A stretch of 38,198 nucleotides of DNA, from NCBI GenBank assembly GCA_965232515.1, contig CBDDPY010000001.1:1-38198 (forward strand). Reading direction: 5' to 3'. This document shows positions 3,473 to 33,270 of the stretch, piece by piece. The notes under the pieces are model-generated. The model saw nothing but the letters and a program-made list of their open reading frames with translations. It was not told the origin of the DNA and made no database searches. The position numbers and the translations under genes were made by a program. Source of the stretch: Alphaproteobacteria bacterium (lineage in GTDB: Bacteria; Pseudomonadota; Alphaproteobacteria; GCA-2731375). Position 1 is the first letter of the stretch, and each line of letters opens with the position of its first letter.

Positions 3473-4029
3473 AAGGGTGCCTCCGAAGGGATGCCCGCGC
3501 CCACGTCGATAAAATCGACGTGGGCGACGGTGAGGGTTGAAACGGCGCCGAAATCCATCAGGTCGCGGCGCTCCAGGTCGAGGATGGCGGTATATGCGAT
3601 GATCTTGCTGGGGCGCCCCGTTTCGTCGAGCATCGGCAAGATGGTCTGTTCGAGATCGGCGCTACGGCCTGAAATGGTGCTGGCAGCGGCGCGGATCACC
3701 CCGACGCAGGGCGTGGCCGTGACCGCGCCATAGGCGTCCAGATATCGCGGGTCGTGATACGGAGAGCCGGCGAGATCGAAGGGGTCGCCGGTCAGGTCGC
3801 GGCCGTATAGGTCCGCCAGGCCGGTTCCCATGAGCCGCCAGACGAAGCCGCCCGCCGGCTGGCGGTCCAGCAGATGAATTTGCGGAAGTAAATCGGGAAT
3901 CATCGCAGCCGGATCAATCGCGGTGCGCGGCGGCACGGCCGAAGGCCCGCGCTGCGCCCACCAATACTCGTAGAAGGCGCGCGAATAATCGTCCCTCAAG
4001 CCTGCGGCGGGCGGCACGGTGGCGTTCAC
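3469..4029 (-). CDS. Stand-alone PAS domain protein (PAS_5-like)
   Basis: YWWAQR..VPPRTAIDP..LLPQI..WRLMGT..GRDLTG pattern typical of PAS_5. Confidence 0.85.
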   Translation of the reverse strand: MNATVPPAAGLRDDYSRAFYEYWWAQRGPSAVPPRTAIDPAAMIPDLLPQIHLLDRQPAGGFVWRLMGTGLADLYGRDLTGDPFDLAGSPYHDPRYLDAYGAVTATPCVGVIRAAASTISGRSADLEQTILPMLDETGRPSKIIAYTAILDLERRDLMDFGAVSTLTVAHVDFIDVGAGIPSEAPL

Positions 4030-4457
4030 TGGCGGGTGGCTCCGATCCCCTCATCCGGGCCATAGGCCAGCCAGAACGCCGCGACCTCCCAGAATCGGCT
4101 ATTCGCGTTGAGCCCGTGCTGTGCGGTCTCGTCGATACTGGCCTGGATCATCAAGGCGGCCCCGTCGCGGCCGTAGGTGGCCACGATGCTGGCGACGGCC
4201 GCGACTGGGCTGGTCAGGTCCCAGGTCGTGCCGTCAGAGTCCGCCGCGGCGATGCGGCGGCGATACAGCGCTCGCAGGACATCGCACCAGTATTCCGCCT
4301 GATCGTAGTGGCCGTCGCTGCACGCGTTCTCGTAGGTGCGCGTGGTAGCCTCGATCGCCGCCGCGCCCTGGCCGGCGTCCAGGGCGTCGGCCATCTCGTC
4401 AGGCGATGGGCGCTCTGGAGCGGCTGGCGTCGTGTAGCTGTGTGTGTGAGTCCCCAT
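4026..4457 (-). CDS. Hypothetical protein (143 aa, MGTHTHSY...)
   Basis: GGAG RBS before ATG at 4457; GTGA overlap with the PAS gene. Confidence 0.7.
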   Translation of the reverse strand: MGTHTHSYTTPAAPERPSPDEMADALDAGQGAAAIEATTRTYENACSDGHYDQAEYWCDVLRALYRRRIAAADSDGTTWDLTSPVAAVASIVATYGRDGAALMIQASIDETAQHGLNANSRFWEVAAFWLAYGPDEGIGATRQ

Positions 4458-8012: not shown

Positions 8013-8726
8013 ATGATTGAAGTCCCCGAAGCCGACAAAAACAGGACCGCCATCCGTGCGATTGCCGAAGTGCTGGCTCAGGGTATGCCTGTCACGGCCG
8101 GTCTCGCCCGCCTGTACCAGTTTACCCATCCTTCAGCCTTCGAGCAGGAGCTGCAACAATGGCGCCGGGATGTGACGCAAGCCGTCAACACGATTTCCGA
8201 GCAGCTCCGTATTCGCCTTCCCGTCAGCGAGGCCAGCCTTGAGGTCACTCGGTTCCTGGTCGGGCAAGCCGCTCGGGGCTATGGGGACGATATTGCTTTT
8301 CAACAGATCGAGGACGGCTTGCCGGAATACGACCGTGCAACGCTCCAGAAAGCCTGCTTCGATCTGGAGCAGTCCGATTTGGTGCGGATCGAGGCCGCCC
8401 ACGGGCGCCCGGTTCTGGCCGTTCGTCCCGAGGCCCGACTTTTCTGGACCTTTGACCCTTACTTCCTCGGCACCGATCCCGGCGCCGACGCCCTGGAGAT
8501 CGCCCGGAAGCTTCTTGAGCAGGATGACGGCGCCTCCGTCGCCGCCGGCGACCTGGAAACCTCTCTCGGCTGGTCGCGCCGACGCTTCAATCCGGCCTTT
8601 GAGAAGGTCGTGGCGGAGCTTCCGCCGGGATGGCTCCGCCAGCCAATGAAGCGGGACTATCCGGCAACCTTAATCCGCGTTTCTCCAGAGGTGCGCGCCC
8701 AGCTTGAACATTTCGTCTCAGGCTAA
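8013..8726 (+). CDS. Hypothetical protein (237 aa), possibly with winged-helix domains
   Basis: ATG immediately after the resolvase stop; LETSLGWSRRRFN HTH-like segment. Confidence 0.75.
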   Translation: MIEVPEADKNRTAIRAIAEVLAQGMPVTAGLARLYQFTHPSAFEQELQQWRRDVTQAVNTISEQLRIRLPVSEASLEVTRFLVGQAARGYGDDIAFQQIEDGLPEYDRATLQKACFDLEQSDLVRIEAAHGRPVLAVRPEARLFWTFDPYFLGTDPGADALEIARKLLEQDDGASVAAGDLETSLGWSRRRFNPAFEKVVAELPPGWLRQPMKRDYPATLIRVSPEVRAQLEHFVSG

Positions 8727-8750
8727 GCGGGCTTGCGATTGACGACGATC

Positions 8751-8776
8751 GGCGCCGGGGCAAGTGCCCCGGCGCC
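8751..8776. terminator. Hairpin between convergent genes
   Basis: GGCGCCGGGGCA-AG-TGCCCCGGCGCC perfect 12-bp stem; weak U-tract. Confidence 0.5.
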
Positions 8777-8783
8777 TTGACCG

Positions 8784-9110
8784 TCAGTCGGACGGATTCC
8801 AAATCAGGGCATAGACGTCGGGCTCATCCTGTCCGGCGGCAACACCCAGGTTGCAGTAGAGCCGGCGCGGGCCGAACTCCGGAGCGGCTAGCGCGAGCGA
8901 CACGTACTCTCTGCCGCTGGTCTCGCCCAGGCGCGTCCAACCGGCGCCGATGTCCACGTTGTCGGCATAGACCCGAAAGTCCGGCTGGTTGCTGTCCGGC
9001 TTCTTGCCGTTGTTCGGGCTGATGCGAATGGGCGCCTTGATGCTGAGGGTCCGCAGGTGTCCGAAGTAACTGCCGTCCGCCTGGAGCTTTACGTAACCGA
9101 TCTGTGCCAT
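8784..9110 (-). CDS. DUF736 family protein
   Basis: MAQIG..GHLRTL..PDFRV..IGAGW..YVSLAL..PEF..LIW pattern. Confidence 0.92.
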   Translation of the reverse strand: MAQIGYVKLQADGSYFGHLRTLSIKAPIRISPNNGKKPDSNQPDFRVYADNVDIGAGWTRLGETSGREYVSLALAAPEFGPRRLYCNLGVAAGQDEPDVYALIWNPSD

Positions 9111-9963
9111 TGTCCGATCCTCTTGCTGGAAGGGGCCATCCCCTTCGATGGCCAGACCGGATGGCGAAGCGGGCCGGGTGAAACCGCCTTGCGGCCCGCC
9201 CGTAGGAGCGGGACCTGAGCGGCGGGGTTTTTTGGAGCGTGAGCGGTCGCGAGGAGCCGCGCAGCGGCGGGGAAAAAACTCCGTGGCGAGGGTTGTGGCC
9301 GGCTCGCGGAGCCATAGGGCTATTAGGCGAGCGAAGGGGATGGTCCCCTTCCAGCCGTTGACGGTCGGCGGCGCGGTCGGTGCGGATCAGCCTTCCCGGC
9401 CGTGGCGTTTCGGAAAACCGGCGGCCCCGGCTTCCGCGCGGTCGCGGCCGACACAGCGGCCCGACGGCAATCGGCTTTTGCGTCGCGGGGTTCGGCCGAC
9501 CGTCTTGGCTGGCGTGATGCGCCTGGGCGAGACCAGTGGCCGGGAGACCCGATCGTCGTCTCATGCGCCCTGGCCGTGTTCGGTCTCGCCCGAGTGCATT
9601 GGTGTCCAGATGGCGGTCGAGCCGCCGGCGACGGCGGCCAGGTTCTTGATGCGGGCAGGTTCGGGGCGATGGCGCCGGCCAGGTGTCGCGGCCGTGCCGC
9701 CGTGCCTCGGGTGCCAGATCGCCGCTCTTGCTCGCTAAATCTACGGTCGATGCCTGTCCGGCCGACCAGCTCGTCGGAAACGTCCCGGCCGTTGGTCTGT
9801 CCCCTCCCCTTTCGTGGTTTCGACGCACCAGGCTTGCACGCGGGCCTGATGCCGGCCGCAACCTGCCAAGGCGGTTTCCGCTCCGCGGACCCTCCCCCTT
9901 TCGGTGGCGTTGGCGGCCCCGCGTGCCGATCCCGGTCGCGTCAACACGAAAGGAGACAGACCA

Positions 9964-10296
9964 ATGGCCTACGACGTGAACGATTTTCGGCTGATCGGCC
10001 GGGTGGCGGACATCCGGCACTTCTCCACCGTGAGCAAGGTGCGGATCGCGACCCAGCACCCGAGGCACAACGGCAAAGCCAGCTTCAACACCGTGTCGGT
10101 CTTCACCGCCGGGACCCGCTCCTACATCAAGCAATATGTCGCGGTCGGCGACAATGTGGGCTGCGACGGCCATCTGGCCACCAGCTCCTACGAGCGCGAG
10201 GGCCAGACGGTCTACAGCGTCGACCTGATCGCGGGCCGCTTCGGACTGATCGCGAAGAAGCGCGACGCCGGCGACGACGGGGCGGGGGCGCAATAG
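9964..10296 (+). CDS. ssb: Single-stranded DNA-binding protein, short form
   Basis: N..LIGRV, RIAT, GD.V..DGHLATSSYE OB-fold pattern; AAGGAG RBS. Confidence 0.85.
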   Translation: MAYDVNDFRLIGRVADIRHFSTVSKVRIATQHPRHNGKASFNTVSVFTAGTRSYIKQYVAVGDNVGCDGHLATSSYEREGQTVYSVDLIAGRFGLIAKKRDAGDDGAGAQ

Positions 10297-10548
10297 CGCC
10301 CCCCTTCCCTGCCGTGGCTACCACTACCAAGTGTTGATTTTCTTAGTCGCTTTGCTCCATGCTTCCAGCCGAGTCGTGTCGTCACGGTGCTGGCGACCGC
10401 CTCGCGGGGATCGCCAGCCCTGATTGCGCAATACCACTAGCCGGTCCGTGCCGGCCGTCCCCCTATAGGTAAAACAAGGTCTGGCTCACGAGCCGTCCGC
10501 CGGCTCGCGTGTCCACTGAAGCAGAGCCCCAGGGGGAGTAAAACGACG

Positions 10549-10791
10549 ATGTTCCAAACGGACGAGCGTGCGCATCCGGTCTTTATCGACGATCGCAGTC
10601 GCCAGGAAATTCGTGTCGGCGATCCAGTGGTCTTTCGCGGTGGCGGCCGCGCGGAAACCTGGCGCTTTCATGCTTTGAACGCCGGCGCCGGCATGGTCAC
10701 GCTCTGCGCCGTCGATAACCCAACCACTGCGATGACGGTCCCGGTCGACTTGACGTCGGGCCGCATAGAACGCGCCGGCGACGTCGGCTGA
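10549..10791 (+). CDS. Hypothetical protein (80 aa)
   Basis: GGAG upstream; plausible beta-rich small protein. Confidence 0.6.
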   Translation: MFQTDERAHPVFIDDRSRQEIRVGDPVVFRGGGRAETWRFHALNAGAGMVTLCAVDNPTTAMTVPVDLTSGRIERAGDVG

Positions 10792-10946
10792 CACCACACA
10801 GCGATTGGGGGTCTATCGGCCTGCGGCCCAACGTTGGTCGATAAGCACGGCGGGGGCGCGCTTCAGGGGAGAGTGCGTGAGTAGCGCCCCCGCCGTGCAG
10901 CTTCTCAGGTGACAGGGCCGCTTTCGGCCGGACTTGTGAGGGAAGC

Positions 10947-11498
10947 ATGACACCCGACAACCCTACCTATGATCCCATGACGCCGCAGGAGGTTCCGGCC
11001 GCGACCGAGTGCCGTATCTATCGGATGCTCAATGCGGCGCGGACGCTTCCCGAGCTTCAAGATCAGGTTCGATTGATTCTCCAGGGATTGCAGTTCAGCG
11101 ACTTCACGCACACCGTCCTTGGTCGCGAGGACGATCGCCTACCGCAGCCTAACCGCACGATGACCAGCTTCCCTTCGGCGTTGTGGGAGAGCTACGACGG
11201 CCACCTTTATCATCGCTGGGATGCGATCCTCGACTATGCGTGGCATAATCGACGGCCAATCTTTTACTCCGAGCTTCGCGCGGTCCTATTACGGTTTCCC
11301 CATGAATCCGAGTTAAAGCAACAGAACGATCGGATCGCCGCTTTATATCGCAGGCACGGCTATTACGAATTCTATTTGATTCCCCACGGCGCCGGCGGGC
11401 GCCGCTCGCTGTTCATGGTCGGCGATCGGCAGCTTGACCCCGACCGCATCCGCCGCCGTGCAGCCGCGGCTGACGGCGGCCAAGTCGAAGTCGAGTAG
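10947..11498 (+). CDS. LuxR-type autoinducer-binding-domain protein lacking the HTH
   Basis: LQFSDF..TSFP..LWESY-x8-DA..RRPIFY..RHGY pattern; no C-terminal LuxR HTH. Confidence 0.7.
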   Translation: MTPDNPTYDPMTPQEVPAATECRIYRMLNAARTLPELQDQVRLILQGLQFSDFTHTVLGREDDRLPQPNRTMTSFPSALWESYDGHLYHRWDAILDYAWHNRRPIFYSELRAVLLRFPHESELKQQNDRIAALYRRHGYYEFYLIPHGAGGRRSLFMVGDRQLDPDRIRRRAAAADGGQVEVE

Positions 11499-11533
11499 TT
11501 TCGTATGGTCTAAGGGGCTTCGCCTCTCGCACG

Positions 11534-11655
11534 GTCAACGCGATCACCGGCGGCCGTGGCCTGGGTGGTTCATCCCCGCGCGAGCGGGGAACGTTGTTAC
11601 CGTGACTACAGCTCTCCCACTGTAGACGGGTCATCCCCGTGCGAGCGGGGAACTT
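11534..11655 (-). CRISPR. Orphan type I-E-like CRISPR mini-array (2 repeats, 2 spacers)
   Basis: Repeats at 11627-11655 (minus: AAGTTCCCCGCTCGCACGGGGATGACCCG) and 11566-11594 (minus: ACGTTCCCCGCTCGCGCGGGGATGAACCA); period exactly 61; spacers 11595-11626 and 11534-11565 (32 nt each); no cas genes on the molecule. Confidence 0.88.
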
Positions 11656-11725
11656 TGTGTCAATATATGTACGCCTTTTGATTAAATCTTGTCGAGAATA
11701 ATCGCGGTAAAGCTAGGGTTTTTGG
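11656..11725 (-). promoter_or_regulatory. AT-rich CRISPR leader-like region
   Basis: AT-rich non-coding tract on the 5' side of the canonical repeat orientation; contains AATCAA (IHF-like half site). Confidence 0.6.
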
Positions 11726-11822
11726 GGCCATTGGTGGCCCGGTGATGGCGGCCGAGTTGGTCGAGAGGCAGCCTGCGGCTTCGGCGCGTCCGGCATTGGG
11801 GGCCTGGTGTGATCAGTGGCGG

Positions 11823-12022
11823 CGCGGATCCGCGTGCGCGGATGCTGCGCCCCTCTTTTTTTGATCCTGGCTAAGGGGCCTTGCCCCTCGCGCGGTCAAG
11901 GCTGCGGCCACCCCAGCCTCAGTCGCTCCGCTCCCTGCGGCAGGGTCCCCTGAACCTCGCCTGGACCTTGCTACCCCCAATCCTCGCCGGATGGGCAGGG
12001 GTTGATGCAGACGCATCACCCC
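11823..12022 (+). repeat. Long structured leading-region element upstream of the ParB-like gene (ssDNA promoter/ssi-like)
   Basis: GGATCC palindrome followed by a GCTAAGGGG...CTCAGTCGCT.CGCTCCCTGCG...GGGTCCCCTG...CTTGCTACCCCC block shared with 37606-37760 and, inverted, 19266-19385. Confidence 0.8.
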
Positions 12023-12058
12023 CTTCCCAGGGGGCTAGCAAGCCACAGGAGTTGCACC

Positions 12059-13786
12059 ATGCAATTGACCCATATCGACATCACCGACTTGAAGGTTTCG
12101 CCGCTCAACATGCGCTATGGCGAGGAACCGGACATCTCCGACATCCTACCGAGCGTGCGGAAACGGGGGGTGCTGTTGCCCCTGTTGGTGCGGCCGAACG
12201 GCAGCGGCTACGAGATCGTCGCCGGTGCGCGGCGTTTCGCCGCCGCCCAGGCTGTGGCGGAAGAAGCGGGCGAGATCGACCCCCTGCCCTGCGGCATCTT
12301 GGACGAGGACGACGACGCGGCGGCCTTGGAAGCGTCGATGTTGGAGAACCATGCTCGCCTCGATCCGCATGAAATGACGCAGTACGAACATTTCGCCCGG
12401 CTGGTGAAGGCGGGGCAGGACGTGGCCGATATCGCGGCCACCTTCAGCTTGACGGAGAGGCAGGTTGAACAGCGGCTCGCGCTCGGCAATCTGCTGCCGA
12501 AGATCAGGGAGGCGTACAGGGCGGATAAGGTCAGTGTGCCGACCATTCGGCATTTGACGATGGCGACCAAGACCCAGCAAAAAGCGTGGCTCAAACTGTT
12601 CGACGACCCTGCGACGCATGAGCCGTGCGGTGCGAACTTGAAGCGCTGGCTACTGGACGGTGACGACATTTCGACCGGGGGGGCGCTGTTCCCCTTGGAG
12701 GAATACACCGCCCGGAAAGGCCAGGACGGCAAGAAGGGCCGTGTCATCACCGATCTATTCGGAGACGGGGGCTACTTCGCTGACCGTGATCTGTTTTGGG
12801 AGTGCCAGAACGAAGCTATCGCCGCCGCGCGGGATGCGTTGTTGGCCAATGGCTGGGCCGAGGTCGAAATCCTCGAACGGGGCCAGAGGTTCTACCAGCA
12901 TGAGCATTCCGAAACCTCGAAAGCGAAGGGTGGCCGCGTCTACGTCACCGTCGCGCACAACGGCGCGGTCGACTTCCACAAGGGCTATCTGACCACCAAG
13001 GAAGCGGCCCGCAAGCGCCGCGCCGAGGCGGCGGCGGCACGCGGCGACGACGCTCCGGTGGAGAAGCCGGAGCGCGTGGAAATCTCTCAGCGAATGCAGG
13101 ACTACTTGGAAGGCTGCCGCCATACGGCTGTGCGGGCGGAACTGCTGCAACATCCCGGTCTGGCCCTGCGCCTGCTGGTCGCCCACGTCATCGAGGGGTC
13201 GCACCTATGGACAGTGAGCCCGGAACACCTGCTATGCGGGAACGACACGTTCGAGACCGAGCGGGCCGAGATCATCGCCCTTCTGGGTTTGCCGGAGCGC
13301 GGGTGCGTTGTTCACGAAGGCCGCGACGACAAGGAGGTGGTTCTGCTCACGGCCAAATTGCTTCAGATGCCGGACGACGAGGTGTTGCGCGTGCTGACAT
13401 TCGTGATGTCGGAAACCTTGGCCTGCGGCAGTGGGGTTGTCGAGGCGGTCGGCAACTACCTTGGGGTCGATATGGCCAACCATTGGGAGCCCGATGACGA
13501 GTTCCTTGACCTGATCAGGGACAAGCGGGTGCTCACGGCCATGATGCGGGAGATCGCCGGCAAGCGCACGGCGGACGCCCATGTGACCGCGACCGGCAAG
13601 GTCATGAAGAAGGTCATCCGCGATTGTCTGCGCGGCGAGAACGACCGCAAGAAGGTCGAGGGGTGGTTGCCGCGTTATCTGGCCTTCCCCTTCCGCGCCT
13701 ACACGAAGGCCGGGGGCGCGAAGGACGGCGGCATTCGGATCGCCGCCGCTTGGGATCGCGTCAAGCGGCTGCTGAAAGCGGCCTGA
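12059..13786 (+). CDS. Large ParB/Spo0J-family protein (plasmid leading-region type)
   Basis: N-terminal ParB domain GVLLPLLVR..IVAGARRF..SMLEN; HTH; AGGAG RBS. Confidence 0.92.
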   Translation: MQLTHIDITDLKVSPLNMRYGEEPDISDILPSVRKRGVLLPLLVRPNGSGYEIVAGARRFAAAQAVAEEAGEIDPLPCGILDEDDDAAALEASMLENHARLDPHEMTQYEHFARLVKAGQDVADIAATFSLTERQVEQRLALGNLLPKIREAYRADKVSVPTIRHLTMATKTQQKAWLKLFDDPATHEPCGANLKRWLLDGDDISTGGALFPLEEYTARKGQDGKKGRVITDLFGDGGYFADRDLFWECQNEAIAAARDALLANGWAEVEILERGQRFYQHEHSETSKAKGGRVYVTVAHNGAVDFHKGYLTTKEAARKRRAEAAAARGDDAPVEKPERVEISQRMQDYLEGCRHTAVRAELLQHPGLALRLLVAHVIEGSHLWTVSPEHLLCGNDTFETERAEIIALLGLPERGCVVHEGRDDKEVVLLTAKLLQMPDDEVLRVLTFVMSETLACGSGVVEAVGNYLGVDMANHWEPDDEFLDLIRDKRVLTAMMREIAGKRTADAHVTATGKVMKKVIRDCLRGENDRKKVEGWLPRYLAFPFRAYTKAGGAKDGGIRIAAAWDRVKRLLKAA

Positions 13787-13844
13787 TCTTCGTGGACGGA
13801 GGGGCCTGCTGGCCCCTCCCCTGCCCCGCAGCGGAAGGACCCCC

Positions 13845-14120
13845 ATGACCGTTCATTGCAACAAGGGCTGTGGCCGTACTTGGCCACGCCATCCCGTCCT
13901 TGAAGTGGACTGCCCGGCGTGCCCCGCCACGGCCGGATCGCGCTGCAAGCGCCCATCCGGTCATCAGGCGGCCGATTACCACCATGCCCGCGTGTTGTTG
14001 GCCTACGACGAGGGGCATTTCGGTTCCTGCCCTTGGGAATGCTGCCGGCCCGAGGGCCGCACCCTGCTCTCCGAGCGGGCCGGCGCGGACCTACCCCTGT
14101 TCGCGGCGCTAGACCGATGA
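13845..14120 (+). CDS. Small zinc-finger protein
   Basis: CNKGC, CPAC..C..H..H and CPWECC motifs; AAGGA RBS. Confidence 0.75.
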   Translation: MTVHCNKGCGRTWPRHPVLEVDCPACPATAGSRCKRPSGHQAADYHHARVLLAYDEGHFGSCPWECCRPEGRTLLSERAGADLPLFAALDR

Positions 14121-14500
14121 TGGTCTATCGGACACCGGGGACGCGGTTGACCTGGGCCAACCTGTCCGACTGGTGCGCCGTCGCCGGCGTGTTGAGCGAG
14201 CGGCGCGACGTGGACGGGGACAACCAGATGGCCCGAGCCGCCCATGTGGAAGCGTTGCCGCTGGCGCTCGTCGCCGGCTGTGACGACGTGGACGCGCTGG
14301 CAACGCTGCTGTGGTGGCTGATCGAGAGCCCGCCGAGCAAGCATATCGTGCGACCGCTTCGGGGGCACCGCGCCGATGCCCCGCATACGCCCTTGATCAT
14401 GGCCGCGAAGAACCGTCTCGCCCAGCTCGCGCGGGCGGCCGACACCGCGACCATGCCCATCGGCCACAACCGCCGTGCCGTCATCGATGCCGAGGATTGA
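14117..14500 (+). CDS. Hypothetical protein (127 aa)
   Basis: ATGA overlap with the upstream gene. Confidence 0.65.
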   Translation: MMVYRTPGTRLTWANLSDWCAVAGVLSERRDVDGDNQMARAAHVEALPLALVAGCDDVDALATLLWWLIESPPSKHIVRPLRGHRADAPHTPLIMAAKNRLAQLARAADTATMPIGHNRRAVIDAED

Positions 14501-14512
14501 GCGGCCGGATTT

Positions 14513-14528
14513 TGTAATGCACATTACA
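14513..14528. promoter_or_regulatory. 16-bp palindrome TGTAATGCACATTACA, copy 2
   Basis: Identical to 19216-19231; lies just upstream of the SprT-like gene. Confidence 0.75.
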
Positions 14529-14553
14529 ACAACTGTTCTAGAGAAGTGTCGTC

Positions 14554-15186
14554 ATGCCTAAGAAAACCACCCCTACCCAGGAAGCCTACGGCGAGTTGTC
14601 GAAAGCCTACGATCATTTCAATGCGGCCCTGTTCGGCGGTCGGCTGCCGCCTTGCCTTTTTACCTTTCAGCGCCGCAAGGGCACTTACGGTTTTTTTGCC
14701 GGGAGCCGCTGGACCGGGCGCGGCGAGCTTGTCGATGAGATCGCCATGAACCCTACGCATTTCAACACGCGGCCGCTGCTGGACGTGTTGTCGACGTTGG
14801 TCCACGAGCAGGTGCATTCAAAGCAGCACCATTTTGGTCGCCCGTCCCGATCCGGCTACCACAATCGGCAATGGGCTGAATGGATGCTGGACGTGGGCCT
14901 GGTGCCCTCCGACACCGGTGAGCCTGGTGGCAAGCAGACTGGTCAGCGGATGACCCACTACATCGAAACCGGCGGACGGTTCGAGATTGCCGCCCGCGCC
15001 CTACTCGATAATGGCTTTCGCATCACTTGGCGCGACCGCGCGGGAGAGGACGAGGCCAAGAAGAAGGGGAAGAGCGGCAGCCGGGTCAAATACATCTGCC
15101 CAGGCTGCGCGGCGGCAGTGTGGGGCAAGGCTGATCTGCGGCTCGCTTGCATGGAGTGTGAGGTCGAGTTGGAAGCCGACGATTGA
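14554..15186 (+). CDS. SprT-like zinc metalloprotease
   Basis: FNAALF..LP, HEQVH (HExxH), YHNRQW, C-terminal CPGC/CMEC zinc ribbon. Confidence 0.9.
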   Translation: MPKKTTPTQEAYGELSKAYDHFNAALFGGRLPPCLFTFQRRKGTYGFFAGSRWTGRGELVDEIAMNPTHFNTRPLLDVLSTLVHEQVHSKQHHFGRPSRSGYHNRQWAEWMLDVGLVPSDTGEPGGKQTGQRMTHYIETGGRFEIAARALLDNGFRITWRDRAGEDEAKKKGKSGSRVKYICPGCAAAVWGKADLRLACMECEVELEADD

Positions 15187-15191
15187 GCGGC

Positions 15192-15227
15192 TATTTAGGG
15201 GTCGGGCAGGTGCCCGACCCCTAAATA
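15192..15227. terminator. Hairpin after the SprT-like gene
   Basis: 17-bp perfect inverted repeat TATTTAGGGGTCGGGCA-GG-TGCCCGACCCCTAAATA. Confidence 0.6.
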
Positions 15228-15486
15228 TTCCGAATCACAGACCGATTCGGTGGTGCGTTGCGTATTTTAGCCCGCCGGACTCCCCGATTACTTTAGCCGT
15301 ACATAAAAATCCCACAATTGCGCGACTCCTAGTGTTTGTGCGGGTTTGGCGGCGGTCCGGCCGGGTGTAGCCCGGCCGGACCGCCTGACATGGTTAATAA
15401 TCGTTGACAGCGGCTATCGCGAGGGTAGCGTTGCTGCACACACGATGGGCACATACAGTGCCGGCTAACTCAGGTATTTGTGCCAG

Positions 15487-24386: not shown

Positions 24387-25398
24387 GGGCGCTAAAGGCG
24401 ACTTCGCTGATGATACGTCTGCCCGTCTCGCGCTTGAGCTGGATGACGATATCGACGACGTGGCGGGCATAGGCCATGATTTCGTCGCGGCCGAGGCCGA
24501 GATTGGCTTGCATCACCATGAGCGCCAGTTGCTCGAAAGCACCGCGCGGGCTATCGGAATGCAGGGTGGTGATGCTGCCCGGATGGCCGGTGTTGATGGC
24601 GCGCAGGTAGGTGTAGGCTTCGGCGCCGCGTAACTCGCCCTGTAGGATTCGATCCGGCCGCAGGCGCAAGGCCGCTTCGAGCAGGTCTTGGACGTTTACC
24701 CGAGCCCGGCCCTGGTCGCCCTTGGACACAAGGAGGCTCACAGTGTTGGGCTGCGCCACCTTGACCTCCGGCGTATCTTCGATCGTCACCAGTCGCTCAT
24801 GCCGGGGGATTGCCTTGCTGATCGCGTTCAAGAACGTCGTCTTCCCCGAGCTGGTGCCGCCCGAGACAATGATGTTTTTTCTGCCGGCGACGGCCTCGGC
24901 GATAAAGGTGGGAAAGTCGCCGGCGGCGAGCAGGCTATCGAGCCGCTTGTCGAGGGCACTGCGTTCGTTGCCTTGGGAGGCGATGGCGTGCTTGAAGGCG
25001 CCGGCGGCCACATAGTCATCCAGGCTCAGGTCGGTGACGGTCTGCTTGCGGATGGACAGCGCGCCGCCGTGCGGGGCGGCGGGGGGTAGGACGATCTGCA
25101 CCCGCTCGCCGCTCGGCAGCGCGGCCGACAGCAACGGCCTGTCGGCGCTGACCGCCTGATCTGTGTTGCCGGCGATCTGGCGGCCGAGCTGGTGGATATG
25201 ATCGGCGGTAATCTCCGGCAGGTCGTGGCAGGTCATGCCTTGCGCGCCCATCTCTTCGACCCATACTTGGCCTGGCCGGTTTACCGCCACTTCCGATATG
25301 TCGTCGCGGCTCAGCCAGGGATCGAAGGGCTTGAGATAGCGCCGCAGATAGACGCCCTGCTGGATACCGCCGTTGGAGCTTGCCGCCAGGTCGTTCAT
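24379..25398 (-). CDS. virB11: VirB11 ATPase
   Basis: SGGTSSGKTT, TIEDTPE, LRLRPDRI, NTGHPGSITTLH. Confidence 0.97.
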   Translation of the reverse strand: MNDLAASSNGGIQQGVYLRRYLKPFDPWLSRDDISEVAVNRPGQVWVEEMGAQGMTCHDLPEITADHIHQLGRQIAGNTDQAVSADRPLLSAALPSGERVQIVLPPAAPHGGALSIRKQTVTDLSLDDYVAAGAFKHAIASQGNERSALDKRLDSLLAAGDFPTFIAEAVAGRKNIIVSGGTSSGKTTFLNAISKAIPRHERLVTIEDTPEVKVAQPNTVSLLVSKGDQGRARVNVQDLLEAALRLRPDRILQGELRGAEAYTYLRAINTGHPGSITTLHSDSPRGAFEQLALMVMQANLGLGRDEIMAYARHVVDIVIQLKRETGRRIISEVAFSAHA

Positions 25399-26576
25399 CG
25401 CAATTGTCTCGCGATGACGTTGGTGAAATCCAGGTCCTTTGCCACAAAGACGTTGATGCGGGTGCCTTGGTCGATGTGGATAGTCGGCGGGATGTTGATG
25501 CTGTTTTCCAGGGCGATTTCGGCGGAGCGGGAGAAGTCGTCGCCGCCGCTGATCGCCACGTTGGCGCTGTCGTCGCCGATGGCCTCGACGCCGGCTTGGA
25601 TGGCGCCGTCGATCAGCGAGAGCAGGATGGAGTTGCCGAAGCGGCGCCAGAAGTGGGTATCCAGGAAGCCTTCGAGCCCGGCGCGGCCGAGTTCGTCGGC
25701 CCCGGGCGAGCCGACCAGCACCGACACACCGTCTGGCAGGAGCGCTCGGGTCCAGATGACGAACACTCGGGTTTGGCCCTGTACCAGGCCGGATTGGTAG
25801 CGGCCGATCAGGCGGGCGCCGCCGGGAATGAGCAGCCGCCGGCCGTCGAAGGAGTAGACGTCCTGGCTGACCACGGCCCGGACCATGCCGGGCAGGTCCG
25901 ATTGGATCGCGGTCTCCAGGGTGCCGCGTATCATGGTCCCCTGGGGAATGATCTTGTCCAGATTGTCGAGCCTGGTCGCTTCGACCATCGCGACGCTGTT
26001 GTTGTCGGCGCGGCGCAAGAAAGCTTCCTCCCGGGAGAGGTCTTGGTCGCCGGTCTCGCCGAAGAAGGCGGCCGGCTCTTGGCCGTTGGCCGCCGCGGCG
26101 ACGCGTGGTTCAGCCTGTGGGCCCGAACCGCCGCGATCGACGATCAGGATTTCCGAGCGCAGCCGTTCCAGGCGGCGGCGTTCGGCTTCCTCGGCCCGCC
26201 GCATGGCGATTTCCTGAAGCCTCAGTTGCTGTTGACGCTCATAGGGGTCGATTTCGGCCCGGGGGGGCGGTGTCGGCTCGGGGGCCGGCTGCACCGGCCT
26301 TAAAGCCACGGTTTGCGGCGGCGCGACCGTAGGAGGGCGGCTGGCCGGCGAAAACTCTTCTTGATCCGGGTCGGTGAGGCGGACATCGGCGTTCTCGGTG
26401 GGCCAGTTGATCCAGGCCACGACGCCGGCGATGGCAAGGCCGAAAAACACCATTGCCAGCCGCTGGTTGCGGTTGGTGCGGGCAACCGGCGTGATGCCGC
26501 GATCGCCGGCGGCCAGCTCGGGTGTCTCGGGTGGCGTGCCGCCCGGCGGTGCTCCATTGTCGTGCCGATCGGTCAT
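25395..26576 (-). CDS. virB10: VirB10/TrbI
   Basis: N-terminal TM, Pro-rich linker, GTLETAIQSDLPG, IPPTIHIDQG. Confidence 0.95.
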   Translation of the reverse strand: MTDRHDNGAPPGGTPPETPELAAGDRGITPVARTNRNQRLAMVFFGLAIAGVVAWINWPTENADVRLTDPDQEEFSPASRPPTVAPPQTVALRPVQPAPEPTPPPRAEIDPYERQQQLRLQEIAMRRAEEAERRRLERLRSEILIVDRGGSGPQAEPRVAAAANGQEPAAFFGETGDQDLSREEAFLRRADNNSVAMVEATRLDNLDKIIPQGTMIRGTLETAIQSDLPGMVRAVVSQDVYSFDGRRLLIPGGARLIGRYQSGLVQGQTRVFVIWTRALLPDGVSVLVGSPGADELGRAGLEGFLDTHFWRRFGNSILLSLIDGAIQAGVEAIGDDSANVAISGGDDFSRSAEIALENSINIPPTIHIDQGTRINVFVAKDLDFTNVIARQLR

Positions 26577-27451
26577 GACCGCCGGCCTTCTGTCGGCGGT
26601 ATCGGCGTTTGCGACGTGGCCGCCGGTGCGTCGCTGTCTTCGGGCCGTGGGCTGTTGAGGTCGAGGTCGGGCGTGCGCGAGTAGGTCTCATTGTAGATGC
26701 AGGTGACGACGTTGCCGTCGCGCAGGGTGAATTGACGGCCGACGCGCTGCACCACGACATAGTTGCCGTCGACATGATGGTTGACCAGGGCCTCGGTCTG
26801 GTCGGCATTGACCAGGAAGATGGCCGGTGTGTCGGTCTTGGCGGCAAACTCAAAGTAGGTGAACTGGCCGTCGTCGAAGATTCGCTTCGGGACCAACTCG
26901 CGATCGCCGGCGAAGGTGTAATCGAAGTTCCAGGCGGCCGGCGTTACGCCCTCCCGGTCCGCACCGACAAGGGAGTCGCGGTCGCGTTGCGCCTTTTCCT
27001 CGCGATCGAGCAGCAGGCGCAATTCTTCCTCGGGATAGCTAAATTCCAGGCGATAGGCGATGTCGGAGTCCGCCGGCCCGCGGGCCTGGGACGCGCGCAG
27101 CTCGAAAGAATAGATGCGCGCGTCGGTGACGACGTTGAGGTTGGTCTGCGCGTTTTCTTCGATTGGCTTCAGGAAAAGTTTGTTGCCGGCGTTGTTCGGC
27201 ACGATCTGCCACGCGATGCTGTCGCCGATGGAGATGTTCTGAATCGCCTCATCCGGGGCGAAGCGGATCAGCGTCTGATAGCCATAGTGTCCCTCAACAA
27301 TATAGACGGTGTGCTCGGAGTAGACGAACGTCTTGATGCGCGGGTCCATCTGACCGGGCCGTGCGGTTGTATCGGCGAGGGCCGGGACGGCGAGTGCGAC
27401 GCCGGCCAGCACCAGGATCAGTCTCTTCATGGTTGCCTCTTTCATCTTCAT
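26573..27451 (-). CDS. virB9: VirB9
   Basis: Signal peptide, DPRI, NKLFLKP, TNLNVVT, FDDGQFTYFEF. Confidence 0.95.
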   Translation of the reverse strand: MKMKEATMKRLILVLAGVALAVPALADTTARPGQMDPRIKTFVYSEHTVYIVEGHYGYQTLIRFAPDEAIQNISIGDSIAWQIVPNNAGNKLFLKPIEENAQTNLNVVTDARIYSFELRASQARGPADSDIAYRLEFSYPEEELRLLLDREEKAQRDRDSLVGADREGVTPAAWNFDYTFAGDRELVPKRIFDDGQFTYFEFAAKTDTPAIFLVNADQTEALVNHHVDGNYVVVQRVGRQFTLRDGNVVTCIYNETYSRTPDLDLNSPRPEDSDAPAATSQTPIPPTEGRRS

Positions 27452-28107
27452 CGGACCATTTCTTGATCGCGTCGATAGCTGATCACTTCAAAGCCCAGTG
27501 GGTTGCGGAGCCGTTCGGCCAGGCTGGCGGGCCGGGCGACGTAGCGGAATTGGAGGATTGCGACCCAGTGATCGATAGTCTCGCTCTGGCGGTTCCGCGT
27601 CGTGGTCTGGAACCGCACGGAGGCCGTCCGATCGTTCAGAAAGGAGATGGCCTTGATCTGCACGGTGATCGTGCCGTGATAGCCGTATAGGTTGACCGGA
27701 TTGGTGGCACTGGCCCGGTCGTAGAGTTGTTGGTGCAACTCACGCGCCGTGCCCGTGCTTGTGCGCATGACGTGATCGAAATTTTCTTGGATGTCGGCCG
27801 GGTCGTAGGTCTCGCGGGCGGTCAGATGACGCGCGATATTTGCCTTGGTGATGGCCTCATCTTCGGTCAGTTCGCCGGGTTGGAGCCCTTTCGTGACTTC
27901 CATATAGCCGGTGGTCCGATCGACGGTGACGACATAGGGCGCGAACTCTTTCAGCGGCAGGACGAGCACGACGGCAAGCATGGCCAGGATGGCGATGCCG
28001 GCGGAAACGGCCGCGACGATCCAGGCCAGGGTCCGCGAGCGTCGGAGCCGCTGATATATCTCGCGGTCCCAGGTCTCCGCGTCGGCGTAATAGCCCTCTC
28101 TAGCCAC
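27448..28107 (-). CDS. virB8: VirB8
   Basis: TM, LPLKEFAPYVVTVDRTTG, RETY, NPLGFEVISYR. Confidence 0.95.
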   Translation of the reverse strand: MAREGYYADAETWDREIYQRLRRSRTLAWIVAAVSAGIAILAMLAVVLVLPLKEFAPYVVTVDRTTGYMEVTKGLQPGELTEDEAITKANIARHLTARETYDPADIQENFDHVMRTSTGTARELHQQLYDRASATNPVNLYGYHGTITVQIKAISFLNDRTASVRFQTTTRNRQSETIDHWVAILQFRYVARPASLAERLRNPLGFEVISYRRDQEMVR

Positions 28108-29152
28108 GGCGGGTCCTTCCCATCATCTGCTGGACTTCCGGCTTGTTGCCGGTCGGGACGCCGGCGCGGGTGCTGGACAGCGCCCGGCCGGTCTGGCTGG
28201 CGTCGTCGGCGGTCGGGGTCGGGGATCGGTTGCCTCTTAGCCGGCGGCCGAGATTGACGGCCGCGCGCCCGCCGGCATAGACGCCGCTACGGGCGCCGCC
28301 GGCGAGCTTGGTGAGGTTTCCAAACGCGCCCCCGGTCGAGAGCTGGAAGGCGCCGGCGATGCCGGCCGCCCAGCCGATCACCTGAGTCGCCAGCAAGAAG
28401 CTGACGACCATCACCAGGGAGTAGGCGGCCATTTGGGTATAATCGAGGGCTTGGTTTTGAGCTGCGATCAGCAAGGGTGCTGACACGCCGTTCATGATGT
28501 TGATGATAAGCGCCAGCAAGCCGTAGATGAAAATGGGGATCAGCGCGAAACTCAACGTTTGGCGCAACCAGCCTTCAAAGAGCCCGCGCGTCCCGGCGAA
28601 GATGTAGAGCAGGATGAAGATCGGGCCGACGGCCAAGAGGACCGCCGTCGCAAGCTTGGCAAGGACGATGACGAAGAGTGTGAAGCCGACGACGAGCAGG
28701 GTCAGGATGACGAGGGCGAGCCCGAGGAAGAAGGGCGTCGGATTGGTCAGTCCCGCATCCTCGCGCATGAGTCGAAAAGTCTCCCATGCGCGATTGTTGA
28801 TTTGGTCGAGGGCCTGGTTGATGTTGGTTTCACTTGGCAGACTTCCCGTAGCTTGCAGCAGGGTCGTGGCGAGGGCTTCGGGGACATCGGTCGCGAGGAC
28901 GAAAACGGTCTCGATCAACAGCGGTACGTGAGTCACGAAGACATAGACAAACGTGATTGTGAACACCCGGGTCATCCCTTCAGCCCAGGTCAATTGCGTC
29001 CGTCCCATCCAGAGCAGGTAGCCCCAAATCGCGATGTAGAGCACGAAGACCGACCGGATGATGTTGGCCCCTTCGGTCGTGAGCGTATTCCATGCCCCGA
29101 TCACGAAGACATCCACGTTGGCATTTACGGCTTCGAGGACGGACTCGAACAT
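28100..29152 (-). CDS. virB6: VirB6
   Basis: Polytopic membrane protein with LLAVGPIFI..TRGLFEGWL; start MFESVL. Confidence 0.92.
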   Translation of the reverse strand: MFESVLEAVNANVDVFVIGAWNTLTTEGANIIRSVFVLYIAIWGYLLWMGRTQLTWAEGMTRVFTITFVYVFVTHVPLLIETVFVLATDVPEALATTLLQATGSLPSETNINQALDQINNRAWETFRLMREDAGLTNPTPFFLGLALVILTLLVVGFTLFVIVLAKLATAVLLAVGPIFILLYIFAGTRGLFEGWLRQTLSFALIPIFIYGLLALIINIMNGVSAPLLIAAQNQALDYTQMAAYSLVMVVSFLLATQVIGWAAGIAGAFQLSTGGAFGNLTKLAGGARSGVYAGGRAAVNLGRRLRGNRSPTPTADDASQTGRALSSTRAGVPTGNKPEVQQMMGRTRRG

Positions 29153-29177
29153 CGGGGCTTTCCCTTTCGACCGGCGG

Positions 29178-29633
29178 TCAGTTCCCTTGGAGTGGGCTGG
29201 ATCGGTGGGCCTGCATCCAGGGATCGCAGGCTGCCTCGTCCCCTTGTCCGATAGGTTTGAGCATTTCAGCTTCACGGCATTCCCAGATCGGCCGCATCCG
29301 CTGATCCATGAACTCCCACAGCCACGGCTCTTTGACGTGCGCCAGGGTCACGTCATAGCCTTGCCCGCGCAGGCCCTGGACGATCAGATCGGGCATGTCG
29401 CGTAGGCAGAAGTCGGGATCGCCCCTGTTTCCGGGATCGTCAGGGTTGGTGTAATAGCGGTGACACCAACGGTTCCAATCGGGCTTGGTCTGCCGCAGAT
29501 CGTCGTAGAGCTGATCGCGGGGCACGGCCGCGAGCGGATTGGGCGTGGCGTCGGTGGCCTGTGAGCCGGTGTCGTCGCAGCCAAGCACCAGGCCGGCGGC
29601 GAGCAGGACGCCGGCGAGCCGGGGCAGCATCAT
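29178..29633 (-). CDS. Lipoprotein, candidate entry-exclusion factor
   Basis: Lipobox LVLGC; lies between virB5/virB7 and virB6, the usual eex position. Confidence 0.65.
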   Translation of the reverse strand: MMLPRLAGVLLAAGLVLGCDDTGSQATDATPNPLAAVPRDQLYDDLRQTKPDWNRWCHRYYTNPDDPGNRGDPDFCLRDMPDLIVQGLRGQGYDVTLAHVKEPWLWEFMDQRMRPIWECREAEMLKPIGQGDEAACDPWMQAHRSSPLQGN

Positions 29634-29800
29634 CGGGTCTCCACCAATGGCGCCGCGGCGAAGGCGACGTTCACCGGCAGCCGATCGCCGCAGCCCACGC
29701 GATCGAGCGAGGCGGTCGTGGGGCAGGGGGCTTTCAGTTCCTTGTGCGAGGCGCAGCCCCCCAGGGCGGCCAGCACGACGGCCAAGCATAGTGATCTCAT
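29630..29800 (-). CDS. virB7: Small VirB7-like lipoprotein (56 aa; not in the ORF track)
   Basis: MRSLCLAVVLAALGGCASHKELKAPC..CGDRLPVN; GAGG RBS; ATGA overlap downstream. Confidence 0.75.
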   Translation of the reverse strand: MRSLCLAVVLAALGGCASHKELKAPCPTTASLDRVGCGDRLPVNVAFAAAPLVETR

Positions 29801-29810
29801 GGCGGGTTCC

Positions 29811-30566
29811 TCAGTTGGTGGGAATCTCTCCCAGGCGCGTGGGCTGGAAGCGGTTCATGCGGGCATCGGCGCTCGTCGCGACTTGCTGCTGCGTCGCGAT
29901 GGTGCCGTTCAGTTGCAGGTTGACGGCTTGGAGGCGCAGCATCTCGTTCGCCGTCAGGCCGTTCTCGGCGGCGATCCGCGCGGTCAGATCGATGCTGGCC
30001 TTCAGATCGGCCGCGTGGTCGATTTCCGACAGGAGCGTTTCGTAGACCTGGACGCGACGGGCGGTCTGGCCGTAGGCAGCCTCGGAGGTCGCGAGGGTGG
30101 CATAGCTGGTGTCGGTCGTGCGCTGGTGCGCTTGGGCGGTGGGAATGTCCGGGCGGGCGGGCGCATAATCCTCGGCGGTGGCCACGTCGTAGCGTTCGGC
30201 CAGCTCTTGGAATATCCGCTGTACGTCGGAGGCACTGGCCGGGATGCCGGCGGCGTCCAGGATGTTCATGGTTTCGAGCCATCCCGGCGGCACGTAGCGG
30301 CGCAGATCGCGCTCGAGGTCGCCGTTGACCAGTCCACCCAGGCCGCGGCCGCCGGTGATCGCGTTGACCTGCGCGATGGCCTGGTCCAGCTCCTGAAGCT
30401 GGGTTTGATAGGCTTCCTGAAGCTGCCGGACCTGTTCGATGGCCTGCTGGGCCGTGATGGTGGTCTGGACCACGTTGGTCGCGTCGATGACCGGGATGCC
30501 TTGTGCGAAGGCGGCCGATGTGCCGGTGCCGGCGGCGATGACGGCCGCGGCGATAACTCGTCTCAT
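29811..30566 (-). CDS. virB5: VirB5 minor pilin
   Basis: Signal peptide then QGIPVID; AITGGRG; DLKASIDLTARI. Confidence 0.93.
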   Translation of the reverse strand: MRRVIAAAVIAAGTGTSAAFAQGIPVIDATNVVQTTITAQQAIEQVRQLQEAYQTQLQELDQAIAQVNAITGGRGLGGLVNGDLERDLRRYVPPGWLETMNILDAAGIPASASDVQRIFQELAERYDVATAEDYAPARPDIPTAQAHQRTTDTSYATLATSEAAYGQTARRVQVYETLLSEIDHAADLKASIDLTARIAAENGLTANEMLRLQAVNLQLNGTIATQQQVATSADARMNRFQPTRLGEIPTN

Positions 30567-32968: not shown

Positions 32969-32982
32969 TCGGCCCTTCCCGG

Positions 32983-33270
32983 CTAGGGTTGATAGCTGTT
33001 CGCTCTCCAGAATTGGCGGTTGCGGCAGAGTGTCGTTTTGGTCAGCTTGATCCGCCAAAGATCGAACAGGCGGGGGTCCTTCAAACACATCAGGTAGCCG
33101 ACGATGTGGACCGGCAGGCCGACCAGGAAGGCCAGCAGATTGTTGCTGGCCAGGAACAGGATCGTCGTGATGGTGACGTTCGCGACGAAAAAGGTATAGG
33201 TCACGCCCTTGATCATCGGCGGTCGGGTCATTGCGAGAAACAACGGGGCGATCACGGGCCGGTCGCTCAT
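32983..33270 (-). CDS. virB3: VirB3
   Basis: PLFLAMTRPPMIKGV, DPRLF, NSYQP. Confidence 0.93.
   Translation of the reverse strand: MSDRPVIAPLFLAMTRPPMIKGVTYTFFVANVTITTILFLASNNLLAFLVGLPVHIVGYLMCLKDPRLFDLWRIKLTKTTLCRNRQFWRANSYQP

Follow-up and report, generated by a model that had tools for sequence, protein, structure and literature searches.

The DNA analyzed in this study (referred to below as the window) is one whole contig (C1) of 38,198 bp (CBDDPY010000001.1, positions 1 to 38,198 of the forward strand) from the assembly of an alphaproteobacterium (GCA_965232515.1, here genome G000; 7.39 Mb in 4 contigs, 96% complete). Searches of its open reading frames (ORFs) with Pfam and NCBIfam-type domain models identified the contig as a conjugative plasmid backbone. 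On its minus strand, between a LuxR-like and a ParB-like gene, lies a very short CRISPR array, composed of a leader (11725-11656), repeat R1 (11655-11627), spacer S1 (32 nt; 11626-11595), repeat R2 (11594-11566) and spacer S2 (11565-11534). By its sequence, the locus is confirmed as a genuine fragment of a type I-E array. With moderate confidence, we regard the array as an inert, eroding relic of a once longer I-E array, inactive in its present host. Most likely, this relic is the trace of an earlier cell in which an active I-E adaptation module coexisted with the plasmid lineage and sampled that lineage's own gene of the type IV secretion system (T4SS).

An earlier annotation made from the letters of this DNA (the sequence-only reading) had described two 29-nt repeats spaced 61 nt apart, with one stem mismatch in the leader-proximal copy. 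A motif search agrees with this description: the minus strand contains the motif GTTCCCCGC-N4-GYGGGGAT without mismatch at 11592-11572 and with 1 mismatch at 11653-11633, the start-to-start distance of 61 nt corresponds to 29-nt repeats and a 32-nt spacer, and two or more matches to the motif were found in 0 of 100 shuffled sequences. The leader-proximal repeat R1 is degenerate, with a G>A substitution in the stem and an A>C substitution in the handle. Among 1062 non-redundant natural repeats of the family, the stem variant occurs once and the handle variant is absent (0/1062). The core of R2 is identical to the family consensus, and its last base is A in place of the family G. Folding gave a 6-bp stem with a 6-nt loop for R1 (-10.7 kcal/mol) and a more stable 7-bp stem with a tetraloop for R2 (-14.2 kcal/mol). 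R1 and R2 are the only copies of the repeat in the whole 7.39-Mb genome, and with two repeats the array stays below the threshold of at least three that is usually applied for detection.

The type I-E affiliation, also claimed by the sequence-only reading, is upheld by the occurrence of the R2 core in arrays beside I-E cas genes. Its 26 nt were found exactly in 41 stretches of the genome_contigs collection, many of them long arrays, and in 21 of the 41 the I-E cas genes lie inside the 8-kb stretch examined. Arrays with this core and dozens of repeats are carried by Haematobacter, Rhodocyclaceae, Thauera, Thiobacillus, Serpentinimonas and metagenome-assembled genomes (MAGs) of Rhodospirillales; in the Haematobacter massiliensis locus, the gene order is cse2-cas7e-cas5e-cas6e-cas1-cas2, followed by the leader and then by the array. 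Other very short arrays with an R2-type repeat were also noted. One (L024) comprises a leader and 2 repeats and adjoins cas1-cas2, and in three others, with 2 repeats (L058), about 3 repeats (L032) and 1 repeat (L028), the examined stretches of 6-8 kb include no cas gene. A 28-nt match to the repeat in genome G037 was discarded, since there is no array at that site.

Directly beyond R2 lies the second 32-nt spacer, S2 (11565-11534, minus strand), which was absent from the earlier description of the array and after which no repeat follows. Of its 32 positions, 31 agree with 30337-30368 (plus strand) of the same plasmid, the sole such match in 7.39 Mb (E 1.9e-9 in a search of the whole genome). 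The protospacer-like site has the 5' flank CCA and is located inside a VirB5/TrbJ-like gene (29811-30566, minus strand; Pfam PF07996, 98.4 bits, above the cut-off; TIGR02791 VirB5, E 6e-22, below the cut-off). The only mismatch is synonymous, as it affects the third base of an Arg codon (CGC vs CGT). The match runs 3 nt (CCA) further, into the end of R2, so that the last base of R2 (A) is the base that flanks the virB5/trbJ protospacer, whereas R1 and the family consensus end in G. At position 29 of the 1062 natural repeats, G is found in 1013 cases and another base in 49, of which 17 have A. In the I-E system of Escherichia coli, as described in passages of two reports (PMC10011333, PMC3764190), the repeat does not serve as template for its own last base, which arrives together with the spacer, from the last position of the protospacer adjacent motif (PAM). 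S2 is considered a real spacer because its self-match is exactly spacer-sized and because the last base of R2 matches the protospacer flank. We read it as probably taken, by Cas1-Cas2 integration, from virB5/trbJ of this plasmid or of a very close relative. Two origins are equally compatible with these features and cannot be told apart: either the array was already on the plasmid and sampled the plasmid itself or a sibling, or S2 was acquired elsewhere, in a replicon already immunised against the plasmid. In E. coli, a flank that resembles the repeat end blocks interference, and under this rule the repeat-like flank would explain why a self-matching S2 was tolerated. Capture of a host array by recombination between spacer and protospacer is a less simple origin, because the array lies 19 kb from virB5/trbJ. 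In PLSDB, S2 has only matches of at most 87% identity, all in unrelated genes.

At the place where a third repeat would be expected, S2 is fused to the truncated 5' end of a repeat element of the plasmid (11505-11533, plus strand). The possibility that 11533-11505 is a third, degenerate repeat was dismissed, since these 29 nt form no repeat hairpin and represent the 5' end of that element. The corresponding direct repeat (11510-11541 vs 11871-11902) is 84% identical, and the second of its arms belongs to a full copy of the element (11853-12022, plus strand), located upstream of the ParB-like gene and bounding the array segment on the leader side. Other full copies are present at 37606-37759 (plus strand) and at 19265-19403 (minus strand), the latter adjoining the nikA-relaxase operon. 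The element is about 150 nt long and GC-rich, its copies are 80-82% identical to one another, it opens with a short hairpin, and two copies end in the palindrome TTGATGC...GCATCA flanked by GGGG/CCCC. The junction between S2 and the element falls inside a 9-nt stretch that both have in common at 8 of 9 positions, and such a shared stretch would fit the loss of the remaining array by microhomology-mediated deletion or recombination. As to the element itself, it may be a shared promoter/operator or an element proximal to the origin of transfer (oriT), and a 33-nt match to its start was observed in a genome of the same family as the host (G008).

The region upstream of R1 (11656-11725, minus strand) is leader-like in its GC content. 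These 70 nt have 37% GC compared with the plasmid mean of 65%, and only 0.17% of 70-nt segments are equally AT-rich, in agreement with the AT-rich leader that had been placed on this side. The motif AATCAA occupies -23 to -28 and TCGACA approximately -35 to -40; the identity of the region to the leaders of real arrays is 39-48%, those leaders being 35-58% identical among themselves. The conserved GGAAGA junction is absent and there are approximately 7 extra nt between AATCAA and the repeat. No sigma-70-like site above the scan threshold was found in the leader.

Among the public sequencing runs listed as containing this stretch, none is recorded as RNA; contigs from runs of other samples were compared with the window over positions 10800-12300. 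One, with the same organism label and from another sample (X3), is identical over 11481-12279. Another, with a different organism label and from another study (X4), is represented by one contig covering 11534-12298 with the same order of S2, R2, S1, R1 and leader. In it, two substitutions affect S1 (11617 and 11619, its positions 10 and 8), and the leader has two more (11677 and 11681, the last one inside AATCAA) besides one-base deletions at 11697 and 11724. The same array is present in a metagenome of a third study (X5), where 11619 is altered. Of the changes in X4, 6 are located in the 131 nt of S1, R1 and leader and 3 in the 634 nt outside (Fisher p = 0.0012); in this alignment, the distribution shows an apparent lack of constraint, and not an acceleration, because the flanks are partly coding. 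Spacer turnover, which the sequence-only reading had suggested looking for, was not observed among the related plasmid contigs, and the changes within the array are restricted to S1 and the leader. In a second contig of X5, half a CRISPR repeat and a different spacer replace the leader from position 11742 leftward, which suggests another truncation product of a longer array. Beyond these contigs, a megablast search of PLSDB with 10900-12100 returned no close plasmid relatives, and a distant blastn search with 8700-15300 gave only gene-level matches of 64-70% identity. A homologous locus was found neither in 60 related genomes nor in the whole order (33 genomes), and in 400 genomes of the class the homologues of the ParB-like protein are 47-56% identical, with the repeat at 0 of 8 such loci.

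The host genome was also searched for the machinery that such an array would require. When 7 I-E Cas proteins of the Haematobacter locus, which did not include Cas3 or the N-terminal part of Cse1, were searched by tblastn in all 4 contigs, the lowest E was 0.059, and the Pfam models of Cas1, Cas6e and Cas7e found nothing in the host genome. In an E. coli control, the Cas1 model responded and the Cas6e and Cas7e models did not, and for the latter two tblastn is the stronger test. The plasmid itself is likewise free of cas genes as far as these searches and the Pfam scans of 30 of its ORFs reach, and the claim of a cas-free conjugative plasmid stands. A search for exact repeats of at least 21 nt at a spacing of 45-99 nt retrieved, from the host genome, only tandem coding repeats and two satellite contigs and no other array; a comparison of R1 and R2 with chromosomal arrays of the host, which had been proposed as a check, thus has no counterpart in this genome. 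Contigs C3 (5516 bp, 45.8% GC, units of 53/83 nt) and C4 (10862 bp, 42.3% GC, unit of about 74 nt) of G000 consist of satellite-like tandem repeats, and with a GC content far under the 65% of the chromosome they are probably foreign to this bacterium. Of the 33 genomes of the host family, only G017 possesses an I-E casC together with an array, whose repeat loop differs. As the searches revealed neither I-E Cas6e, Cascade and Cas1 nor a further array, there is nothing in the present host for the array to hijack, guide or titrate. The sequence-only reading had imagined a weapon, a regulatory guide or a Cascade decoy; none of the three is supported for this host, and they could hold only in other hosts that bear Cas.

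The spacers were compared with potential targets in both directions. S1 has no match in its own genome, in PLSDB or in phage records, and none as an exact string in IMG/VR and the JGI metagenomes (exact search only). Conversely, 1027 spacers of the retrieved arrays were compared with the plasmid, and the best reached 24 of 32 positions. This best match, from an array of a MAG (L061) to the zeta-toxin/AAA_33 ORF at 21742-22527, was not accepted as a protospacer, since its first 7 positions (the seed) are mismatched.

The surroundings of the array are those of a conjugative plasmid, and the Pfam scans mentioned above detected only backbone genes. These are: RepC (15940-17220), a ParA/VirC1-like protein (17742-18458, minus strand), a NikA-like protein and a MobP-type relaxase (19452-21202), the TraG coupling protein (22536-24470, minus strand) and a Trb/VirB-type T4SS (25395-33088, minus strand), together with a resolvase, a DUF736 protein and a zinc-finger protein. 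An ORF with zeta-toxin and AAA_33 kinase domains adjoins the relaxase (21742-22527, plus strand). The sequence-only reading had taken the molecule for complete; it is indeed a whole contig of the assembly, but its circular closure is not supported, as the contig ends do not overlap. Its description of the neighbours as genes of the leading-region type was sound: an SSB (9904-10296), the ParB-like protein (594 aa; 12002-13786), a SprT-like protein (14554-15186) and DUF736. The position relative to oriT that would place the array in the leading region of the plasmid is an inferred one. No anti-CRISPR-like neighbour was recognised with Pfam, PHROGs and NCBIfam, libraries that were not designed to detect anti-CRISPRs. 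The LuxR-type ORF next to the array (10947-11498, plus strand; 183 aa) has an autoinducer-binding domain only (PF03472, E 7.8e-8) and no helix-turn-helix, and it could be a truncated or an anti-activator-like quorum-sensing protein. A metagenome scan with this protein gave no relatives (42 pattern matches, 0 confirmed). Between the leader and the repeat element there is a terminator-like hairpin with a T-run (11836-11860, plus strand), which points to the ParB-like gene and has no clear upstream gene to terminate. No Rfam family reached the gathering score in 10800-12300; a match to c-di-GMP-II-GCG (E 0.18) was dismissed, as it lies inside the LuxR-like ORF.

The interpretation of the array as a decaying relic is preferred because R1 carries rare substitutions, the junction motif is absent from the leader, the third repeat is missing with S2 fused to a truncated element, and the array drifts without spacer turnover. 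In the corresponding scenario, the array would once have resided in a cell with I-E Cas1-Cas2, where S2 would have been acquired from virB5/trbJ of the plasmid lineage and S1 would have been added after it. A deletion or recombination would then have removed the third repeat and everything beyond it, fusing S2 to the truncated plasmid element. In the present host, apparently devoid of Cas6e, Cascade, Cas3 and Cas1-Cas2 (Cas3 was not queried), any transcript would stay unprocessed, no guiding would take place and the array would not grow. If a recipient had a matching I-E system, S1 alone, placed between two repeats, could mature to a CRISPR RNA (crRNA), and S2 presumably could not, because its 3' hairpin is missing. 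The anatomy, the identity of the repeat with those of I-E arrays, the self-match of S2 and the absence of cas genes and further arrays from the host are observed; the sequence of events and the loss of activity are what we infer.

Several observations weigh against this interpretation. The unit R1-S1-R2 is structurally complete and R1, despite its substitutions, still folds as a hairpin; the AATCAA of the leader (-23 to -28) falls inside the -9 to -35 range of the E. coli IHF site. The comparison of rates of change pits non-coding DNA against partly coding flanks, and R1, R2 and S2 are unchanged in X4 and X5, a result that is uninformative by itself (0/90 nt vs 9/675 elsewhere, p = 0.61). The array persists in plasmids from three studies, which could reflect selection; such persistence is also expected by descent, the plasmids being approximately 99% identical. 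The absence of Cas proteins from this one host says nothing on the other hosts of a conjugative plasmid, and the same repeat is used by many I-E systems of alpha- and betaproteobacteria.

A rival reading takes the locus for a working mini-array that acts in trans, in which Cas6e and Cascade of a recipient would load the S1 crRNA (and formerly that of S2, directed against a sibling virB5/trbJ) and destroy a resident competitor, the carrier's own copy escaping through the CCA flank and the mismatch. The intact R1-S1-R2 unit, the repeat shared with many real I-E systems, the location among leading-region-type genes and the derivation of S2 from a T4SS gene of its own lineage, the one difference being synonymous and the flank lacking the usual final G, are all consistent with it. 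It would also mirror the virus-borne mini-arrays aimed at related viruses, as presented in portions of PMC11656645, and passages of a plasmid survey (PMC9071438) state that plasmid spacers mostly target plasmids and propose the use of host Cas in trans for orphan arrays. However, S2, being without a 3' repeat, would yield no normal crRNA; S1 has no target in its own genome, in PLSDB or among phages, and no exact match in IMG/VR and the JGI metagenomes, and its positions 8 and 10 are altered in sister plasmids. Moreover, the R1 substitutions are rare, the leader motifs vary between near-identical plasmids, the present host and 32 of the 33 family genomes lack I-E, and the three spacers of a comparable mini-array, that of plasmid pACRY04 (described below), are likewise without a PLSDB target. 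On balance, the trans-acting mini-array appears rather unlikely. Its specific form, a leading-region mini-array that borrows the recipient's Cascade against a sibling virB5/trbJ and of which the copy found here has recently been disabled, or still works through S1 against an unsequenced target, is in our opinion unlikely. If true, it would extend the viral mini-array strategy to conjugative plasmids that use type I-E systems. The theme of plasmid competition or conflict, raised by the sequence-only reading, is borne out in part by the match of S2 to virB5/trbJ of the lineage, but the signs of decay do not indicate a maintained device.

The repeats rather than the spacers would matter if the array were an RNA decoy comparable to RNA-based anti-CRISPRs (Racrs), in which the repeat hairpins bind Cas6e and Cas7 of the recipient, aberrant complexes are formed and I-E immunity is weakened during plasmid establishment. 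Repeat mimics that inhibit CRISPR-Cas are known in phages and plasmids, two I-E candidates having been validated according to sections of PMC10651486, and Racrs are described there as solitary repeat units, whereas two repeats, canonical 32-nt spacers and a leader constitute an anatomy built by Cas1-Cas2. A drifting spacer beside unchanged repeats is the pattern that a decoy would produce, and the gene surroundings are of the leading-region type, but the lack of changes in the repeats is statistically uninformative, as given above, and R1 is degenerate. Neither a promoter-like site nor a recognisable anti-CRISPR neighbour was found, the latter with libraries not built for that purpose, and in the present host there is no I-E system for a decoy to act on; this reading seems quite improbable. 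Another reading assumes a CreA/crRNA-like regulatory guide, by which S2 RNA would direct Cascade to bind, and not to cleave, the plasmid's own virB5/trbJ and in this way tune conjugation in Cas-bearing hosts. The 31/32 match to its own gene, next to a flank similar to the repeat end, of the kind that blocks interference in E. coli, would suit such a guide. The crRNA-like regulators described in the relevant part of 10.1101/2023.03.03.530964, however, sit in cas loci and pair partially with promoters, whereas the match of S2 is near-complete and inside a coding region. As S2 is also without the 3' repeat that loading by Cas6e and Cascade would require, and the host has no Cascade, we consider a regulatory guide very improbable. 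Finally, the chance that the locus is not CRISPR at all, being a fortuitous pair of hairpins or a member of a dispersed repeat family, is practically negligible. The array has only two copies of the repeat, under the usual threshold of three, and another dispersed repeat element adjoins it, but two motif matches were not obtained in any of the shuffles, arrays beside I-E cas operons contain repeats with an identical 26-nt core, the 29 + 32 nt geometry is exact and the adjoining self-match is spacer-sized. A dispersed non-CRISPR family, which the sequence-only reading had considered as the finding that would speak against an array, is contradicted by the presence of only two copies in the 7.39-Mb genome.

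The inert relic that we favour has parallels among the orphan arrays of plasmids. In a survey of 17,828 non-redundant plasmids (Pinilla-Redondo et al., NAR 2022, PMC9071438), 207 orphan arrays were counted; according to the pertinent passages of that article, they are shorter than cas-linked arrays, those with two repeats were left out of the main analyses, and the candidate explanations are decay remnants, reliance on host Cas supplied in trans and recombination with arrays of the host. The locus described here resembles the arrays covered in those passages in being a cas-less I-E array on a conjugative proteobacterial plasmid and in being shorter than cas-linked arrays. It differs from them in that its host is without any I-E system and in that one remnant spacer matches the carrier's own T4SS gene.

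A further example was identified in plasmid pACRY04 of Acidiphilium cryptum JF-5 (NC_009470.1; 37.4 kb, RepC-type, MOBP), which contains an unannotated I-E mini-array at about 25677-25888 (4013-4224 of stretch L014). As in the array of the window, there are I-E repeats (4) and spacers of 32 nt (3), an AT-rich leader and no cas gene listed in the annotation table of the plasmid; its last repeat is degenerate. In contrast, the loop of its repeat is GCAC (TCGC here), the plasmid backbone is different and the array is located downstream of a transposase-like remnant. Its 3 spacers have no match elsewhere in their own plasmid or in other PLSDB plasmids. It was also observed that, about 130 nt upstream of the pACRY04 leader, there is a 12-nt stretch identical to the 3' part of R1.

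Medvedeva and colleagues reportedly described, in 2019, virus-borne mini-CRISPR arrays with spacers targeting related viruses. Like the array of the window, virus-borne mini-arrays, as characterized in parts of PMC11656645, are carried by a cas-less mobile element, have one or two spacers and a leader, and include a spacer that matches a close relative of the carrier. Unlike it, their repeats are the host's own CRISPR repeats and their function was shown by competition experiments, according to the same parts of that source. Here, there is no CRISPR-Cas in the host, and the spacer from the plasmid's own lineage is no longer followed by a repeat. The Racrs (Camara-Wilpert et al. 2023, PMC10651486) are similar in that repeat sequences are found on cas-less mobile elements, plasmids and I-E examples being included; in the sections of that article that describe them, they are single repeats without canonical spacers, whereas the locus reported here shows array geometry and the signature of Cas1-Cas2 integration.

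Orphan plasmid arrays are thus already known, and what distinguishes this one is an unusually legible evolutionary record. Such arrays are common but unexplained, and those with two repeats are usually filtered out of surveys. In the present case, the history can be read from a spacer derived from the T4SS of its own lineage together with a PAM-derived repeat base, a truncated distal end, a Cas-less host and the drift among sister plasmids. This supports the view that at least some orphan arrays of plasmids are eroding records of past conflicts between CRISPR and plasmids or between plasmids. It also indicates that inspection of one spacer-length past the last recognisable repeat can recover extra spacers.

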